Shown here: one piece after another, positions 75 through 25,590 of the stretch | Position numbering within the stretch: the first letter of the stretch is position 1 | Layout: each line of letters opens with the position of its first letter | Source: an uncultured Sulfuricella sp. | GTDB lineage: Bacteria > Pseudomonadota > Gammaproteobacteria > Burkholderiales > Sulfuricellaceae | Length of the DNA: 26,214 nucleotides | Assembly (NCBI GenBank): GCA_964351305.1 | Contig: CAYGNO010000012.1 | Span: 1-26,214, forward strand | Direction of reading: 5' to 3' | Program-made: the position numbers and the translations under genes | The notes under the pieces: model-generated | What the model saw: only the letters and a program-made list of their open reading frames with translations | What the model was told of the DNA's origin: nothing | Database searches by the model: none

Positions 75-803
75 ATGGCTGCTCCGCTGATCCGCGTCGA
101 AGGCCTGCACAAACAATACGAAATCAAGGGTGGCCGTGCTGTTCCGGTACTTCACGACGTGAATTTGAGTATCGTCCCCGGCGAATTCGTCGCCATCATG
201 GGCCCATCCGGTTCTGGCAAGTCCACCTTCATGAATATCCTCGGCTGCCTCGACACGCCCACCAGCGGGCATTATTTCCTGAATGGTCGGGATGTCGCAA
301 AGCTGAATCCGGATGAACTCGCTCATCTGCGCAATAGCCTGATTGGATTCGTGTTCCAGGGTTTTAACTTGTTAAAGCGCGTCACCGCGCTGGACAACGT
401 CGCGCTGCCGCTGCTTTACGCCGGCCTGGGGCAGGCTGAGCGGCGTGAACGCGCCCTGGAGGTCTTGCGTCAGACCGGGCTGGAAAATTTCCCCCTGTCG
501 CTACCGAACCAACTATCCGGCGGCCAACAGCAGCGCGTCGCCATCGCCCGTGCGTTGATCAACCGTCCGCCGCTGATCCTGGCCGATGAACCGACCGGCA
601 ACCTGGATACCCACACCAGCCAGGAGATCATGGAGGTATTCACCCGGCTCAACCGCGAACAGGGCATGACCGTCATCCTGGTGACACACGAACTGGATAT
701 CGCCCGCTACGCTCACCGGATGGTGCGTTTTGTGGATGGGCGGGTGGCGCATGATGGGAAAATCAGTTCATTTACCACGAATGACACGAATAGGCACGAA
801 TGA
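75..803 (+). CDS. ABC transporter ATP-binding subunit, MacB/LolD-like
   Basis: 242-aa ORF with Walker [13 protein letters not shown] signature [15 protein letters not shown], Walker [13 protein letters not shown] and H-loop VTHE. AGGA lies 7 nt upstream of the ATG. The last ~10 codons ([10 protein letters not shown]) and the stop codon are encoded by the left inverted repeat of the inserted cassette, so the native C-terminus is probably altered. Confidence 0.9.
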
Positions 804-811
804 ACACGAAT
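771..811. repeat. Left terminal inverted repeat with four phased CACGAAT heptamers
   Basis: CACGAAT occurs at 776-782, 785-791, 795-801 and 805-811, spaced 9-10 bp apart. A degenerate fifth unit GACGAAA lies at 814-820. Confidence 0.85.
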
Positions 812-1183
812 CCGACGAAAATACTTCATCAGGAACTGGCTTACCAAATCGTGGGGTTGGCCATGCAGGTTCATACCAGGTTGGGAAATGGGTTCTTGGA
901 AAAAGTGTATGAGAATGCACTGATGGTGCTGCTTCACAAAGCAGGAATCGATGCAGTGCAGCAGGCTCCGATTACTGTATTGTTTGATGGTGAGTCCATC
1001 GGAACTTATTACGCGGATATTCTAGTCGAGAACAAGATTATTCTGGAACTTAAAACGGTAAGTGAAATATCTGATTCCCATAAAGCTCAGGCACTTAATT
1101 ATCTCAAGGCAACCGGCCTGAATTTGGCTATGGTTTTTAACTTTGCCAACCCTCGTATGGAATACCAGCGGATCATTCTATGA
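800..1183 (+). CDS. GxxExxY family protein (PD-(D/E)XK nuclease fold, PDDEXK_3-like)
   Basis: 127-aa ORF with the motif GFLEKVYENAL (G-x-x-E-x-x-Y) and a D...ELK core (YADILVENKIILELK). Its ATG at 800 overlaps the TGA of the upstream NBD gene (ATGA). The first residues, MNTN, are encoded by the heptamer array. Confidence 0.85.
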   Translation: MNTNPTKILHQELAYQIVGLAMQVHTRLGNGFLEKVYENALMVLLHKAGIDAVQQAPITVLFDGESIGTYYADILVENKIILELKTVSEISDSHKAQALNYLKATGLNLAMVFNFANPRMEYQRIIL

Positions 1184-1199
1184 TTCCCTCTTTTGTTGT

Positions 1200-1240
1200 A
1201 TTCGTGCAGATTCGTGAACATTCGTGTCATTCGTGGTTAA
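1200..1240. repeat. Right terminal inverted repeat with four phased ATTCGTG heptamers
   Basis: ATTCGTG occurs at 1200-1206, 1210-1216, 1220-1226 and 1229-1235, a mirror image of IR-L. All but one of the mismatches to IR-L fall in the 3-nt spacers between heptamers. Confidence 0.85.
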
Positions 1241-1250
1241 TCTTTCTGCC

Positions 1251-2474
1251 ATGAAAATTCTCGCCATCTTTGTCGAAGCTTGGCGCGCCATGGCAATGAA
1301 CGGCATGCGCACCGCCCTGACCATGCTCGGCATGGTGATCGGCGTGGCGGCAGTGGTGCTGATGCTCGCCGTCGGCCAAGGGGCGCAACATACCGTCAAC
1401 CAATCCATCGCCTCGATGGGCAGCAACCTGTTCATCGTCCTGTCCGGCGCCAGCACTTCCGGGGGGCTGCGCTTCGGCGCGGGCAGCGTGCCTACCCTGA
1501 CCGTCGGCGATGCGCAGGCGCTCGCTCAGATTCCATCGGTCAAGGCGGTTGCCCCGGTTTATCCGGGCAGCGCGCAGCTGGCCTATGGTTCGAGCAACTG
1601 GAGTACGGTTGTAACTGGCTCCACCCCTGATTATCTGACTGTACGCAACTGGCCCTTGGACTCCGGCCACCCCTTTGAGGAAAGCGATGTGCGCGGCGCG
1701 ACCAGGGTCGTCCTGCTCGGCCAGACGGTGGCGAAAAATCTGTTTGGCGAGGAAGACCCTACCGGCAAGAGCATCCGCATCAAGAACATGCCATTTCTTG
1801 TCGTCGGCCTGCTGTCGGCCAAGGGGCAGAGCCTGGATGGGCGCGACCAGGACGACACTGCCGTGGTGCCGGTTACTACTGCCCAGCGCAAGCTCTTCGG
1901 CAACCAGTTCCCCGGTACGGTGCGCTATATCTCGGTACAGGGAAAATCCGCCGAAGTGATGGAGGAGGCGGAACGGGAAATGGGCCAGTTGCTGCGTCAG
2001 CGCCACCGCCTGGCCGAGGGAGCGGAGAATGACTTCATGATCCGCAACCTGACCTCGGTGGCACAGTCCGCGGCCGGATCGGCGCAGGCCATGTCCCTGA
2101 TGCTCGGCGCAATCGCCTCCGTTTCCCTGCTGGTGGGCGGCATCGGCATCATGAACATCATGCTGGTATCGGTCACCGAACGCACCCGGGAAATCGGCAT
2201 CCGCATGGCGATCGGCGCGCGCCGCCGCGACATCCTGTTACAATTTCTGCTGGAAGCGCTGATTATCTGCATAGTCGGCGGGTTGGTTGGAGTGCTCCTT
2301 GGCGTGGGCGGCGCCTGGCTGGTCAGTTCGATGGCGGAAATGGCCGTGGTGGTCACAGTGTGGTCGATCCTGCTGTCGTTTGCCTTTTCTGCCGCGATCG
2401 GTGTGTTTTTCGGTTATTACCCGGCACGGCGCGCGGCAATGCTCAAGCCAGTGGAGGCGTTGCGGTATGAGTGA
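1251..2474 (+). CDS. ABC transporter permease, MacB/FtsX family
   Basis: The N-terminus MKILAIFVEAWRAMAMNGMRTALTMLGMVIGVAAVV is typical of MacB-type permease TM1. It is followed by a large periplasmic domain and a C-terminal FtsX-like 3-TM bundle (REIGIRMAIGARRRDIL). I prefer the ATG at 1251 over the track's GTG at 1224, which lies inside IR-R. Confidence 0.85.
   Translation: MKILAIFVEAWRAMAMNGMRTALTMLGMVIGVAAVVLMLAVGQGAQHTVNQSIASMGSNLFIVLSGASTSGGLRFGAGSVPTLTVGDAQALAQIPSVKAVAPVYPGSAQLAYGSSNWSTVVTGSTPDYLTVRNWPLDSGHPFEESDVRGATRVVLLGQTVAKNLFGEEDPTGKSIRIKNMPFLVVGLLSAKGQSLDGRDQDDTAVVPVTTAQRKLFGNQFPGTVRYISVQGKSAEVMEEAEREMGQLLRQRHRLAEGAENDFMIRNLTSVAQSAAGSAQAMSLMLGAIASVSLLVGGIGIMNIMLVSVTERTREIGIRMAIGARRRDILLQFLLEALIICIVGGLVGVLLGVGGAWLVSSMAEMAVVVTVWSILLSFAFSAAIGVFFGYYPARRAAMLKPVEALRYE
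2420..2470. repeat. Direct repeat copy 1 (51 bp) at the left boundary of the relBE cassette
   Basis: cccggcacggcgcgcggcaatgctcaagccAgtggaggcgttgCggtatga matches 3059-3109 at 49/51 positions. This copy encodes the real C-terminus of the permease. Confidence 0.9.
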
Positions 2475-2502
2475 GAATGCGCGAAAGGTCGCAATTCGTG
2501 CA

Positions 2503-2538
2503 TTGACATTCCCATACATGGAGATATACTTGTATATC
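2503..2538 (+). promoter_or_regulatory. Sigma70-type promoter plus palindromic operator for the relBE-type module
   Basis: TTGACA (2503-2508), a 16-nt spacer, then TATACT (2525-2530). A perfect palindrome GATATAC-tt-GTATATC (2523-2538) overlaps the -10. The antitoxin ATG at 2544 would leave only a ~6-nt leader, so the mRNA is near-leaderless. Confidence 0.6.
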
Positions 2539-2543
2539 ATTTA

Positions 2544-2783
2544 ATGGGGTATCTGCCTGTGCTTGCCATTCGCCTGCCTGAAGAAATCGAATCCCGTCTT
2601 GAAGCGCTTGCCCGTCTCACCGGGCGCACCAAAACCTTCTACGCCCGCGAGGCCATCCTTGAGCACCTTGACGATCTGGAGGATATTTATCTGGCCGAGA
2701 AACGTCTTGAAGATATCCGTACCGGTCGGGAAAAAACCATCCCGCTTGAGGACGTGATGAAGCGCCATGGCCTGGAGGGTTGA
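2544..2783 (+). CDS. Type II antitoxin, ribbon-helix-helix (RelB/ParD-like)
   Basis: 79-aa ORF. The N-terminal IRLPEEIESRLEALARLTGRTKTFYAREAI fits an RHH fold. It overlaps the downstream toxin gene by 17 nt. Confidence 0.8.
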   Translation: MGYLPVLAIRLPEEIESRLEALARLTGRTKTFYAREAILEHLDDLEDIYLAEKRLEDIRTGREKTIPLEDVMKRHGLEG

Positions 2784-3036
2784 GTTTTCTCCCGCCGCCG
2801 ATAGGGAACTCGACAAGCTCGACCCGCAACACGCCAAAAGGGTGCTTAAGTTCCTGTTTGAACGCGTTGCCGCACTTGATGATCCGCGCAGCATTGGTGA
2901 AGCGTTGAAGGGATCGAGCCTTGGCGCCTTCTGGAAATATCGCGTGGGGGATTACCGAATTGTCTGTGCCATCGAGGACGATGCCTTGCGAGTCCTCGTT
3001 GTGCGGGTGGGCAATCGGCGGGAGGTGTATCGGTAA
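2767..3036 (+). CDS. Type II toxin, RelE/ParE superfamily
   Basis: 89-aa ORF. WKYRVGDYRIVCAIEDDALRVLVVRVGNRREVYR is a typical RelE/StbE-type C-terminus. The gene is paired with the upstream RHH antitoxin. Confidence 0.85.
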   Translation: MAWRVEFSPAADRELDKLDPQHAKRVLKFLFERVAALDDPRSIGEALKGSSLGAFWKYRVGDYRIVCAIEDDALRVLVVRVGNRREVYR

Positions 3037-3058
3037 GTTTCCGGTTGAGGGCCTGTGC

Positions 3059-3109
3059 CCCGGCACGGCGCGCGGCAATGCTCAAGCCGGTGGAGGCGTT
3101 GTGGTATGA
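3059..3109. repeat. Direct repeat copy 2 (51 bp) at the right boundary of the relBE cassette
   Basis: A duplicate of the permease 3' end, matching 2420-2470 at 49/51 positions. It contains the cysC start codon (3106). Confidence 0.9.
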
Positions 3110-3720
3110 ATAATAAAAGCTCCGATACTGTTTGGCACCATGCCACGGTAACGCGTGCTCGCAGAGAACGGCTCAACGGCCACAAAAGTGCGATTGTCTG
3201 GTTTACCGGGCTTTCCGGTGCCGGCAAGTCGACATTGGCGCACGCGGTTGAAGAGAGATTGCACCAGATGGGTTGCAGCACCTTTGTTTTCGACGGCGAC
3301 AATGTTCGCCATGGGCTGTGTGGTGACTTGGGGTTTTCCGAGGGAGACCGCAGTGAAAATATCCGCCGCATCGGTGAAATGGCCAAGCTGTTTGTCGAAG
3401 CCGGCGTGATTGCGCTGACCGCCTTCATCTCACCATTCCGCGCGGATCGTCTCAAGGTTCGCAATCTGGCGGCCCCAGGCGATTTCATCGAAGTCTATTG
3501 CCGCTGTTCGCTGGAAGTTTGTGAACAACGCGACGTGAAAGGGATGTACCGCAGGGCTCGCGCCGGCGAAATCCGCGATTTCACCGGAATCTCCTCCCCC
3601 TATGAAGAACCGGAAAATCCGGAGCTGTCCGTCGACACCGGGAGCATGCCGCTGGAGCTATGCGTGGATCAGGTTGTCGGTTACCTGCAGGAGCGCGGTG
3701 TGATTCCAAAACCGCAATGA
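3106..3720 (+). CDS. cysC: Adenylyl-sulfate (APS) kinase
   Basis: P-loop [13 protein letters not shown], followed by DGDNVRHGL and FISPFRADR motifs. The start is set at the ATG at 3106 ([12 protein letters not shown]). The track's upstream extension from 3055 is the duplicated permease tail read in another frame. Confidence 0.9.
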
Positions 3721-23830: not shown

Positions 23831-23963
23831 GTTTTAACCCAGATTGTCCATTGGAATGTTCGTGCCTGTAGGAGCGCCGCCCCCGGCGCGAATGCGGTCG
23901 CAAATCGCGGCGAGGGCGCCGCTCCTACAGCGGTGTTTTGGCTCTAATGGATTATCTGGGGTT
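23831..23963. repeat. REP/MITE-like hairpin element, copy C
   Basis: The core is 23836-23963 (128 bp), in the same orientation as copies A and B. Its last 2 nt overlap the TAA stop of the HD-GYP gene. Confidence 0.9.
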
Positions 23964-25590
23964 AAGCGGCAAACCCCGGAATCTTCGTCACGTCCACTTC
24001 GTCGATTTGCTCAGGTTCGAGAAACCGCTTGGCATACTTCAGATAAACTTTTTCCCTGATAAAGGCATCGAACAAATCCGGGTCGACGTGGTTGTCCAGC
24101 TTCATCAACCCGAGTATCCGCAGCGACTCGGTCAGGGTTTTGCCGTGCTTGTAAGGGCGGTCGCGTGCGGTGAGCGCTTCGAAAATGTCGGCGATGGCCA
24201 TGGTTCGCGCCTGAATCGACATCTGCTCGCGAATCAACCCCTTCGGGTAGCCCTTGCCGTCCATGCGCTCGTGGTGACCGCCGGCATATTCCGGCACGCG
24301 CCTGAGGTGTTTGGGCCACGGCAGGGTTTCCAGCATCTTGATGGTGGCGACGATGTGATAGTTGATAACCTGCCGCTCTTCGTCGGTCAGCGTGCCCTTG
24401 GCGATCTTCAGATTCTTCGCTTCGTCGTCCGACAGGAAGAAGGCGGTTTCACCTTTCTCGTTCACCCAGGTTAGTCGGGCGATGGCTTCGACCCGCTCTT
24501 GCTGCTCCGGTGACATGAATTCGCCGCCGATGTTGCTTTTGCGCAGGAACTCGCGGTCGTCGTCAAGCTGGCGGATGCGTTGCTGGCAGGCCTGTTCCAG
24601 CGTGGCGAATGACTCCTTGTTTCCTTGTTCCAGGCCCCGTATTTTTGCGCGCAACAGATCGATTTCCGCATCGCGCTTCAATACTTCGAAGCGGGTATCC
24701 ACCAGATGGATGCGGTCGAACAGGGCCTGCAGCTTGGTTGCCTTGTCGACGACGTGAACCGGGGTGGTGATTTTTCCGCAGTCGTGCAGCAGCCCGGCGA
24801 TCTTCAGCTCGTAACGGTCCTTGTCGGTCATCTGGAAGTCCTTGAGCGGACCTTCCCGGGTGGCGCAGGCGGCTTCGGCGAGCAGCATGGTGAGAACGGG
24901 TACGCGTTTGCAGTGGCCGCCGGTGTAGGGCGATTTTTCGTCAATCGCAGAATCGATCAATTTGATGAAGGATTCGAACAGCGCTTCCAGCTGGTTGATC
25001 AGCATCCGGTTGGTCAAGGCAATGGCGGCCTGCGAGGCGAGGGACTCGGTGAGCCGCTGATCGGCGTGGGAGAAGGGGATGATTTCGCCGGTTTCCGCAT
25101 GCTTGGCATTGATCAACTGCAATACCCCGATGATTTCGCTGGCGTGATTTTTCATCGGAACGGTGAGAAATGACTTGGAGCGGTAGCCGGTTTTCTGGTC
25201 GAAATCGCGCGTGCCGGAAAAGTCGAAGCCCTCGGCGGTGTAGGCGTCATCGATGTTGATGGTGGTGTCGTGCAGCACCGAGTAGGCAACCACCATCGAG
25301 TTGTTGGGCTTGCCCTGTGCATCGTACAGGGGCAGCGGGTCGAACGGGATCGCAACGCCGGTGGTGCCGCCCATGGCGATGTTCAGGGTGTCGTTGCGGA
25401 GGATCTCGAATTTGAGGTGGTTATCTTCCGTCACCCGGTAAAGCGTGCCGCCATCGGCGTTGGTGAGGCTTTTGGCGGCGAGCAGAATGGCTTCGAGCGT
25501 CCGGGTAGTGTCTTTTTCCGCAGACAGGGCCACCCCGATGGCGTTCAGTTTCTCCAAACGCTCAAGAAGGTCGTTGCTGGCGTTAGTCAT
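23962..25590 (-). CDS. GAF domain-containing HD-GYP phosphohydrolase (putative c-di-GMP phosphodiesterase)
   Basis: 542 aa. The N-terminal ~180 aa is GAF-like. The HD motif is LLHDCGKITTP and the GYP motif is HHERMDGKGYPKGL. Confidence 0.85.
   Translation of the reverse strand: MTNASNDLLERLEKLNAIGVALSAEKDTTRTLEAILLAAKSLTNADGGTLYRVTEDNHLKFEILRNDTLNIAMGGTTGVAIPFDPLPLYDAQGKPNNSMVVAYSVLHDTTINIDDAYTAEGFDFSGTRDFDQKTGYRSKSFLTVPMKNHASEIIGVLQLINAKHAETGEIIPFSHADQRLTESLASQAAIALTNRMLINQLEALFESFIKLIDSAIDEKSPYTGGHCKRVPVLTMLLAEAACATREGPLKDFQMTDKDRYELKIAGLLHDCGKITTPVHVVDKATKLQALFDRIHLVDTRFEVLKRDAEIDLLRAKIRGLEQGNKESFATLEQACQQRIRQLDDDREFLRKSNIGGEFMSPEQQERVEAIARLTWVNEKGETAFFLSDDEAKNLKIAKGTLTDEERQVINYHIVATIKMLETLPWPKHLRRVPEYAGGHHERMDGKGYPKGLIREQMSIQARTMAIADIFEALTARDRPYKHGKTLTESLRILGLMKLDNHVDPDLFDAFIREKVYLKYAKRFLEPEQIDEVDVTKIPGFAA

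Follow-up and report, generated by a model that had tools for sequence, protein, structure and literature searches.

In this work, a 26,214-nt stretch of DNA from an uncultured Sulfuricella sp. (contig CAYGNO010000012.1, positions 1 to 26,214; "the window" means the whole of this stretch) was analysed at the junction between the ATPase and permease genes of a MacB-type ATP-binding cassette (ABC) exporter. The junction holds a small gene for a protein of the GxxExxY family, enclosed by two arrays of the heptamer CACGAAT that face each other as inverted repeats (Table 1). This cassette is foreign to its operon, polymorphic and exchangeable among relatives, family-wide in its architecture and expressed with the operon, and both its protein and its heptamers are constrained.

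Table 1. Features of the cassette and its neighbours at the macB junction of the window.
Feature	Position	Strand	Remarks
MacB-type ABC ATPase gene	75..803	+	ORF; PF00005 (ABC_tran) 9.6e-34
Whole inserted unit, ~472 bp	770..1241	+	missing from related macB operons
Left arm	770..820	+	ATTTAC outer end, four CACGAAT, degenerate fifth unit GACGAAA (814-820)
GxxExxY protein gene	800..1183	+	127 aa; TIGR04256 1.5e-39, PF13366 6.9e-38
A/T-rich linker	1184..1199	+	short; separates cassette stop codon from right arm; poorly conserved among orthologues
Right arm	1191..1241	+	four ATTCGTG, then outer end GTTAAT
MacB permease gene	1251..2474	+	PF12704 (MacB_PCD) 4.7e-53; PF02687 (FtsX) 7.6e-24

The anatomy of the locus agrees with the original prediction, made from the sequence, of a 127-aa GxxExxY open reading frame (ORF) between the two exporter genes, with four heptamers per arm at 9-10 bp. 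The left-arm units (776-782, 785-791, 795-801 and 805-811 on the + strand) are separated by the spacers GA, AGG and GAA, and the right-arm units, which read ATTCGTG on the + strand and CACGAAT on the - strand (1200-1206, 1210-1216, 1220-1226 and 1229-1235), by CAG, AAC and TC. When 771-811 was compared with the reverse complement of 1200-1240, the predicted 34 matches in 41 positions were counted again, and of the seven mismatches six fill the two 3-nt spacers at 792-794 and 802-804, one lies at 773 and none falls in a heptamer. A repeat search extended the inverted repeat to 51 nt (770-820 and 1191-1241; 80% complementary). CACGAAT occurs 11 times in the window, where 4.1 +/- 1.8 occurrences are expected, and none of 100 shuffles reached that count. 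The claims that the left arm supplies the last ~10 codons and the stop of the ATPase gene, that the cassette start overlaps this stop and that the cassette protein begins with array-encoded MNTN were borne out in the reading frames: the ATPase gene reads through three units, and its TGA (801-803) overlaps the cassette ATG (800-802) as ATGA at 800-803. The permease ATG lies 15 nt past the last heptamer, and an obvious Shine-Dalgarno sequence is absent. The G+C content of the cassette is 43-46% (43% in the window) compared with 59-63% in the flanks, about 18 points under that of the host. Neither the flanking gene tables nor Pfam showed a transposase or recombinase within the cassette or next to it, in line with the transposase-free unit of the prediction.

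The membership of the window protein in its family is secure. It scores 135 bits with TIGR04256 (GxxExxY) over model positions 1-116 of 116 and 130 bits with PF13366 (PDDEXK_3), and the curated cut-offs are 35 and 22 bits, respectively. The family motif reads G31-F-L-E34-K-V-Y37; E34, D73 and E83-L-K85 are invariant in alignments of 17 and of 32 sequences, and Q97xxxY101 comes after E83-x-K85. The AlphaFold model (predicted local distance difference test, pLDDT, 84.6) shows the alpha-alpha-beta-beta-beta-alpha-beta order of the minimal restriction-endonuclease fold. Foldseek returned weak matches only (E ~0.006-0.07, template modelling score, TM, < 0.5), led by lambda exonuclease, a Spirosoma restriction-fold protein, AF1548, LHK-Exo, AdnAB and MGME1. 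A sequence search of solved structures gave no match to the window protein, the PADLOC defence-system models gave 0 families at E <= 0.1, and PHROGs gave just marginal endonuclease matches. In total, 13,807 clusters at 50% identity match the family at E <= 0.001, and only 8 plasmid records hold a relative. About 25 of the best 150 family matches (P0241, P0242, P0247 and P0250 among them) are two-domain fusions of 250-275 aa, in which a 15-25-aa linker joins the modules and one module often lacks the D...ExK residues. These fused forms, in which one active site is often degenerate, look like pseudo-dimers, perhaps with one active site, and they suggest a dimer as the working unit of the nuclease. 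No published description of the array architecture or of a function for the family was found, in a search that left subscription journals and curators' notes outside its reach.

The prediction had staked its case on other GxxExxY genes carrying such arrays, and they do. From a profile search over one genome per species, which matched more than 587 loci, 80 loci were retained, and a second search, in the independent collection of the JGI metagenomes, gave 80 further loci. Arrays were counted with the motif C[AG]CN[AG]A[TAC], which was derived from an unbiased search. Among 148 unique GxxExxY genes, an array was present on the left in 123, on the right in 113 and on both sides in 99; the metagenome set alone gave 56/69, 52/69 and 46/69, respectively, and about 5% of control 165-nt windows held an array. 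The hosts come from many bacterial phyla, among them the Pseudomonadota, Planctomycetota, Acidobacteriota, Chloroflexota and Cloacimonadota, and include the archaea Methanoperedens and Methanosarcinales. A Brocadia cassette, from another phylum than the window, has the same CACGAAT arrays and a protein 65% identical. An unbiased 7-mer search of the upstream flank against the reverse complement of the downstream flank recovered a single heptamer family (CACGAAT, CACGAAA, CACGGAT, CACAGAT, CGCAGAT, CGCAAAT, CGCGAAT, CGCAGAC and CACAGAC), in which positions 1, 3 and 6 are invariant; a later count of 556 units used a motif that already fixes these three positions. The arms commonly hold three units (range 2-4) with a spacing of 10 bp (441 cases) or 9 bp (224). 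Left spacers are purine-rich, with GAA the commonest, and the spacer complementarity between arms is 66% compared with 49% predicted by composition. The inverted repeat runs about 6 nt past the outer unit, with the consensus tTTAGC before the outermost CAC and GCTAAA after the outermost GTG.

The heptamer type follows the protein tree, requiring 35 parsimony steps compared with 65 for shuffled types, and 0/500 shuffles were as low. The N-terminus reads M-x-T-N in 95 of 116 close homologues, and the longer called N-termini read TRM, HE and TN, which are the heptamer in three frames. The suggestion in the prediction that low-complexity N-termini in the databases are the arrays read as protein therefore holds for this subfamily. 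Another candidate role, that the array with its 10-nt period and T|GA junctions closes all entering reading frames, was rejected, since all three frames were closed in 6% of arms compared with 3% in mononucleotide shuffles.

The named close homologues of the window protein come from Sulfuricella metagenome-assembled genomes. At L001, L002 and L005-L014 (the numbering of loci is ours), proteins 90-97% identical to that of the window lie at the same macB junction. The empty-site alleles that the prediction had called for were found in three relatives, L220, L135 and L136 (permease 89%, 84% and 82% identical, respectively), which have neither cassette nor arrays. In L135 the ATPase stop overlaps the permease ATG (ATGA), in L136 a 12-nt gap separates the two genes, and in L220 the junction holds an unrelated 106-nt GC-rich spacer. 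The ATPase of the empty-site relatives ends in ...AHDGDVIGHAEHALT or ...AQDGEVTA before the stop codon, and on the left host homology stops at approximately ...AHDG(K/E)(I/V), to begin again on the right with the permease ATG. The translational neutrality claimed for the unit is thus only approximate, because the native ATPase C-terminus has been replaced and the ATGA coupling to the permease has been lost. As the empty macB relatives hold no arrays, it follows that arrays and ORF arrived together. Furthermore, L137 and L218 carry at this junction another GxxExxY protein (59% identical) with CACGGAT arrays, between flanking genes 88-91% identical to those of the window. The cassette type conflicts with the host tree here, because the permease of L005, which has a CACGAAT-type cassette, is nearer to that of L137/L218 (93%) than to that of the window (91%). 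Such presence or absence and exchange of cassettes is the behaviour expected of a mobile or recombining unit.

Within the lineage of the window, L001 and L005, the copy has been stable. By comparing the window with L005, the synonymous divergence (dS) of the cassette ORF is 0.66, with a nonsynonymous-to-synonymous ratio (dN/dS) of 0.07, and the permease has a dS of 0.70 and a dN/dS of 0.08; in other pairs the cassette dN/dS is 0.08-0.23. The similar dS of cassette and permease therefore points to long vertical inheritance in this lineage, during which the protein was kept working. L001 and L005 share all eight heptamers (56 bases) with the window without a single change, whereas their spacers vary, and in the comparison with L005 the linker after the cassette stop is heavily diverged and contains an indel, with the heptamers beyond it unchanged. 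Judged from these alignments, constraint acts on the heptamers themselves. The low G+C content of the cassette shows no drift toward the host value. The selfish unit suggested in the prediction is hard to square with a single copy that is passed on vertically and is under such strong purifying selection. In L001 (2984-3006), and also in L002 and L138, a 23-bp insertion, GCCGAAAGTAGGCGCCTCTAGGC, parts the first left-arm heptamer from heptamers 2-4 and alters the ATPase tail to ...TTNAESRRL before the stop; in the same three loci the AGG spacer is replaced by GTT, which is complementary to the AAC of the right arm.

The near-equal dS values and the congruent relationships of window, L001 and L005 would also be expected if the cassette were an immobile accessory gene long resident in the macB operon, with the heptamers as ordinary operator or attenuator sites. 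We regard this explanation as highly improbable, because relatives with 82-89% permease identity have empty junctions, because the junction can hold a different cassette, in disagreement with the host tree, because the same architecture stands between unrelated genes in many phyla, and because the G+C content is so far below that of the host. A non-mobile resident gene is largely refuted by the empty sites together with the occurrence at unrelated junctions.

The cassettes are closely fitted to operons, as was predicted from the window. In a sample of 78 cassettes with both arms and enough flanking sequence, and with upstream ORFs of at least 100 codons considered, 62 are preceded by a co-oriented ORF whose end falls from -60 to +40 nt relative to the outer left unit (median ~-9), and for 15 of those 62 the array itself contains the upstream stop, which is found at +9/+10, +19 or +28/+30. 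A co-oriented ORF starts within 80 nt past the right arm in 55/78, and 46/78 are framed on both sides. The Brocadia cassette lies between radical S-adenosylmethionine (SAM) and glycosyltransferase genes in a long one-directional polysaccharide cluster, and that of a Brocadiaceae-like population lies between cas4 and cas1. Tandem cassettes also occur (L213; L140, L377). No promoter-like or terminator-like site was found on the + strand within the window cassette, and therefore it is transcribed with the host operon; the cassette is an operon hitch-hiker dependent on host transcription.

Arrays may donate start codons to genes besides GxxExxY. A NUDIX gene in the Brocadia polysaccharide cluster (L373:7815-7850) begins ATGAACGCAGATACACGCAGAAAT, which corresponds to two CGCAGA(T/A)-type units translated as MNADTRRN, and this start may be a relic left arm that supplies an unrelated gene with its start codon. 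The operon of the NUDIX gene also contains an inserted HepT/MNT toxin-antitoxin pair. Directly after left arms, ORFs without a Pfam match were seen at L146:944-1750, L147:3387-4102, L029/L127, L106 and L126:9217-9504, and they begin with array-encoded peptides (MNTNKHK..., MDTNKHES..., MNTNRHES...).

The tight packing of co-oriented cassettes between operon genes could also mean that the unit acts in RNA, like an rRNA intervening sequence (IVS). The arms would then form a stem around the ORF in the mRNA, and RNase III or the cassette nuclease would cleave it, separating or tuning the upstream and downstream messages. The host would come to need the nuclease for expression of the split operon, and such an addictive cassette would explain the purifying selection that is seen as low dN/dS in the vertically inherited copy. 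In the predicted fold of 760-1250 the arms pair in both the minimum-free-energy and the centroid structures (-160.2 kcal/mol, z = -4.97; 0/100 shuffles were as stable), with the outer 18-20 bp of the stem perfectly paired. The raised spacer complementarity and a permease without ATGA coupling or a visible ribosome-binding site fit as well, and an ORF-bearing element excised by RNase III has a precedent in Coxiella. Against this stands, first, that the heptamer sequence is conserved across domains of life beyond what pairing requires. Arm mismatches of G.U type on the sense strand, compared with A.C type, numbered 47 vs 31 and then 95 vs 74, which is not significant (p = 0.12), so that selection on RNA structure in the arms is unsupported. 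No blastn match of the E. coli rrn operon occurred in 374 other loci, and Rfam gave nothing near threshold in 650-1350. A location of the rRNA-IVS kind was rejected on the absence of rRNA from these loci and the position of the window cassette between protein-coding genes. The comparison with rRNA intervening sequences and RNase III made in the prediction consequently finds no direct support. PD-(D/E)XK enzymes of the GxxExxY branch are mostly DNases, and presence or absence, cassette exchange and ORF-less copies are left unexplained. An RNA-level module is, in our judgement, unlikely.

Arrays also occur without the gene. In a collection of viral contigs, the three-unit CACGAAT pattern was found in at least 120 stretches and the CGCAGAT pattern likewise in at least 120, compared with 34 for a scrambled control heptamer in the whole collection. 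A GxxExxY protein is encoded in 0/120 of the listed CACGAAT viral loci, and a protein-based scan of the same collection gave one GxxExxY locus. Many of the viral matches are short intergenic hairpins of the form C-CACGAAT-nn-CACGAAT, a loop of 13-70 nt and ATTCGTG-nn-ATTCGTG-G, lying between a stop codon and the following ribosome-binding site. Of the viral arrays, nearly half of those with CACGAAT and about half of those with CGCAGAT show 9,9 spacing, and such 9,9-spaced arrays may be unrelated tandem repeats. An inverted partner with the exact heptamer was present in 13/138 CACGAAT, 54/156 CGCAGAT and 1/34 control cases, every hairpin being scored on both strands in these counts. On viral contigs, the majority of long array-to-array intervals have the look of ordinary genes with a separate hairpin on either side. 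An array query against phage records matched nothing, possibly owing to the low-complexity filter.

The 160 cassette-centred cellular loci contain 39 hairpins, 13 ORF-less elements of 120-330 nt and at least 64 intact cassettes. The array-to-array distance is bimodal, with 0-40 nt for hairpins and 350-450 nt for cassettes, and both forms share the terminal consensus tTTAGC. The MITE-like character proposed earlier (miniature inverted-repeat transposable element, MITE) is supported to this extent, in that ORF-less derivatives with the same termini exist. Array density is 0.60/kb at 60-460 nt from a cassette and 0.08/kb beyond 700 nt, a 7-fold difference, and 34 of 57 other arrays in a locus have the heptamer of the local cassette (14.8 expected). 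A gain or loss at the population level was seen between cas4 and cas1, where allele L376 reads ...GTGGCTAAAAATT followed directly by CATGAAAC, and L377 has an additional array-bounded ORF-less element of ~190 bp at exactly this point. The element, which is absent in L376 and L378, stands right after ...ATTCGTGGCTAAAAATT. At no offset did 52 hairpins and 46 cassettes show a target-site duplication of 3 nt or more, and their ends carry only palindromic GC/TA dinucleotides that belong to the inverted repeat. The alignment of macB junctions urged in the prediction has yielded empty sites but not the exact insertion boundaries.

In the Brocadiaceae-like loci L376-L385 and L140, the GxxExxY cassette is accompanied between cas4 and cas1 by one or two of the ~190-bp ORF-less elements in tandem. 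The alleles differ by one whole element, and L380/L382 represent a third allele with other sequence after the first heptamer of the next element. Array repeats probably break assemblies, and many Brocadiaceae-like contigs end at or near arrays.

The abundance of ORF-less hairpins, essentially without the gene on viral contigs, raises the possibility that the arrays are an independent hairpin repeat of REP type (repetitive extragenic palindrome) or MITE type, spread by another factor, and that GxxExxY is a passenger in hairpin loops which is of use to the host, for instance through repair or defence. A stable single copy under strong purifying selection would fit a beneficial passenger, and the RecB/lambda-exonuclease-like fold suggests end processing. 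In the viral sample, which was chosen by its arrays, no other recurrent cargo family was found between arrays, the six non-GxxExxY ORFs examined gave no Pfam match, and a repeat with its own means of spread is difficult to reconcile with macB relatives that lack arrays as well as ORF, so that both came jointly. The heptamer dialect moreover tracks the protein tree, and no PADLOC defence model matched. We consider the passenger explanation rather unlikely.

We put it at about an even chance that the 472-bp unit is a copy of a widespread, horizontally transferred cassette whose arrays serve as cis sites for recognition by the nuclease that it encodes. That the nuclease may read the arrays is suggested because the two are almost always together and their variants co-diversify, because the 9-10-bp phasing turns the heptamers towards the same side of the B-DNA helix, as at transposon ends with multiple sites, and because their sequence is conserved and not mere complementarity. 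By its anatomy and by comparison, the cassette lands in the short gap that separates two genes of the same direction which are normally coupled, and its translation starts at the array-built ATG, here via the ATGA overlap with the upstream stop. We hypothesize that the arrays would be the cis-acting sites of the cassette: a nuclease dimer would bind the helically phased heptamers of both arms as DNA and would cut at or near their outer ends. Host recombination and repair would then complete gain, exchange and spread into array-bearing sites in a homing- or MITE-like manner, and ORF-less arrays would be non-autonomous relatives served in trans. More tentatively, GxxExxY cassettes in bacteria and archaea could be an unrecognised class of autonomous mini-elements, in which a nuclease of ~125 aa reads the arrays and moves the ~450-bp unit and the hairpins between coupled genes without a DDE, HUH, serine or tyrosine recombinase, its heptamer dialect co-evolving with it; we hold this generalisation to be possible but somewhat doubtful.

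Several observations weigh against a cassette mobilised by its own array-reading nuclease. The fold is RecB/lambda-exonuclease-like, with the QxxxY motif and Foldseek matches that stay weak (TM < 0.5), and RecB and lambda-exonuclease-type enzymes are often end-processing and not sequence-specific. The link between protein and heptamer is a correlation, and shared descent would give it as well. The viral arrays far outnumber the gene, with at least 120 stretches per heptamer type and a single locus. The exact macB insertion boundaries cannot be fixed, the nearest empty allele being 82% identical in permease DNA. A vertical copy at dS ~0.7 under strong purifying selection implies that selection at the level of the element is insufficient and that a function is served in place. 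Since there is neither a recombinase nor a target duplication of at least 3 bp, the joining step falls to the host. The missing joining enzyme and target duplication, the viral array excess and the selection on a stable single copy are what self-mobilisation leaves unexplained.

GxxExxY/PDDEXK_3 is a very large family with no assigned function and almost no literature, and a fixed DNA architecture gives it a concrete model. If the nuclease does read the arrays, it would mean a minimal element that moves without a classical recombinase, in a new way, and the natural dialects (CACGAAT, CACGGAT, CGCAGAT and others) would be ready-made specificity variants. In database annotations, the arrays account for N-termini of low complexity (MNTN, HELTRM and the like) and for C-terminal tails wrongly given to neighbouring proteins, and in metagenomes they explain contig breaks beside GxxExxY genes. 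The cassettes split translationally coupled genes and yet persist, which raises the question of how operon expression is restored.

Two other repeats were observed in the window. A 58-nt direct repeat (91% identical; 2420-2477 and 3059-3116), which contains the overlapping end of the macB permease gene and start of an adenosine 5'-phosphosulfate (APS) kinase gene, brackets a 639-bp insert (2478-3058; ORFs 2544-2783 and 2767-3036) with a ribbon-helix-helix (RHH; TraY-like) antitoxin and a ParE toxin. L005 and L220 are without the RHH/ParE insert and keep the permease/APS-kinase overlap, and L218/L219 have a different module, YoeB/YefM, on the opposite strand at about the same place. The permease/APS-kinase region is a hotspot for small add-on modules. 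An intergenic repeat of ~134 nt is present in three copies 90-93% identical (18617-18750, 22027-22160 and 23831-23964). It has terminal inverted repeats CCCAGATTGTCCATT...AATGGATAATCTGGG and represents a MITE/REP-like element of its own, with no relation to the heptamer arrays.

By comparing the cassette with known systems, likenesses and differences were found in each case. Like REP sequences and their associated RAYT transposases (REP-associated tyrosine transposases), it has a small gene between inverted hairpin-forming repeats, the repeat is also dispersed without the gene just past stop codons, and the repeat dialect tracks the associated protein. However, RAYT is an HUH/Y1 (IS200-like) transposase, whereas the cassette protein is a 127-aa PD-(D/E)XK protein with only PDDEXK_3/GxxExxY in Pfam/NCBIfam. 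A REP is a single imperfect palindrome and the cassette has an array of phased heptamers; RAYTs are typically present in one or few copies per genome, and GxxExxY genes are reputedly multi-copy. With MITEs and with transposons that have terminal inverted repeats and subterminally repeated binding sites (Tn7 and Mu ends; plant hAT and CACTA) the cassette shares several phased short motifs in its terminal inverted repeats, short ORF-less derivatives, presence/absence polymorphism and nesting beside existing copies, but it is without a DDE, HUH, serine or tyrosine transposase and without a target duplication of at least 3 bp, and it measures ~450 bp.

Homing endonuclease genes, of which I-Ssp6803I is a PD-(D/E)XK-type example, are likewise small, code for a nuclease and spread horizontally together with short homologous flanks, and the cassette protein could cut array-bearing 'empty' sites. 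On the other hand, the cassette is in no intron or intein and occupies many unrelated junctions instead of one cognate site; ORF-less arrays exist as possible targets, yet the empty macB alleles are array-free. The motif order E...D...ExK...QxxxY and the best Foldseek matches are those of RecB, Cas4 and lambda exonuclease, but the cassette protein has 127 aa, lacks an Fe-S cluster and accessory domains, and matches them weakly. Integron cassettes are also promoterless small ORFs in series, expressed by upstream transcription; here there is no attC and no integrase in the flanks, and inverted heptamer repeats stand on both sides.

The ORF-bearing rRNA IVS of Coxiella and Leptospira is likewise a horizontally acquired insert of ~430 bp with a small ORF within inverted repeats, transcribed in host RNA, and in Coxiella the 23S rRNA IVS, which is 428 nt long and contains an ORF, is cut out by RNase III (PMC4990558). 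The cassette differs in that it does not lie in a 23S rRNA helix, the IVS protein is the S23p four-helix bundle, and heptamer arrays are not reported for IVS. Moreover, the Coxiella ORF is decaying and the cassette ORF is under purifying selection. The cassette lacks the defining marks of these systems, as it has no HUH or DDE enzyme, no target duplication, no rRNA site and no attC. It looks like an ORF-bearing rRNA IVS, and it would work most like a REPtron or a pair of MITE and autonomous element with multi-site ends.

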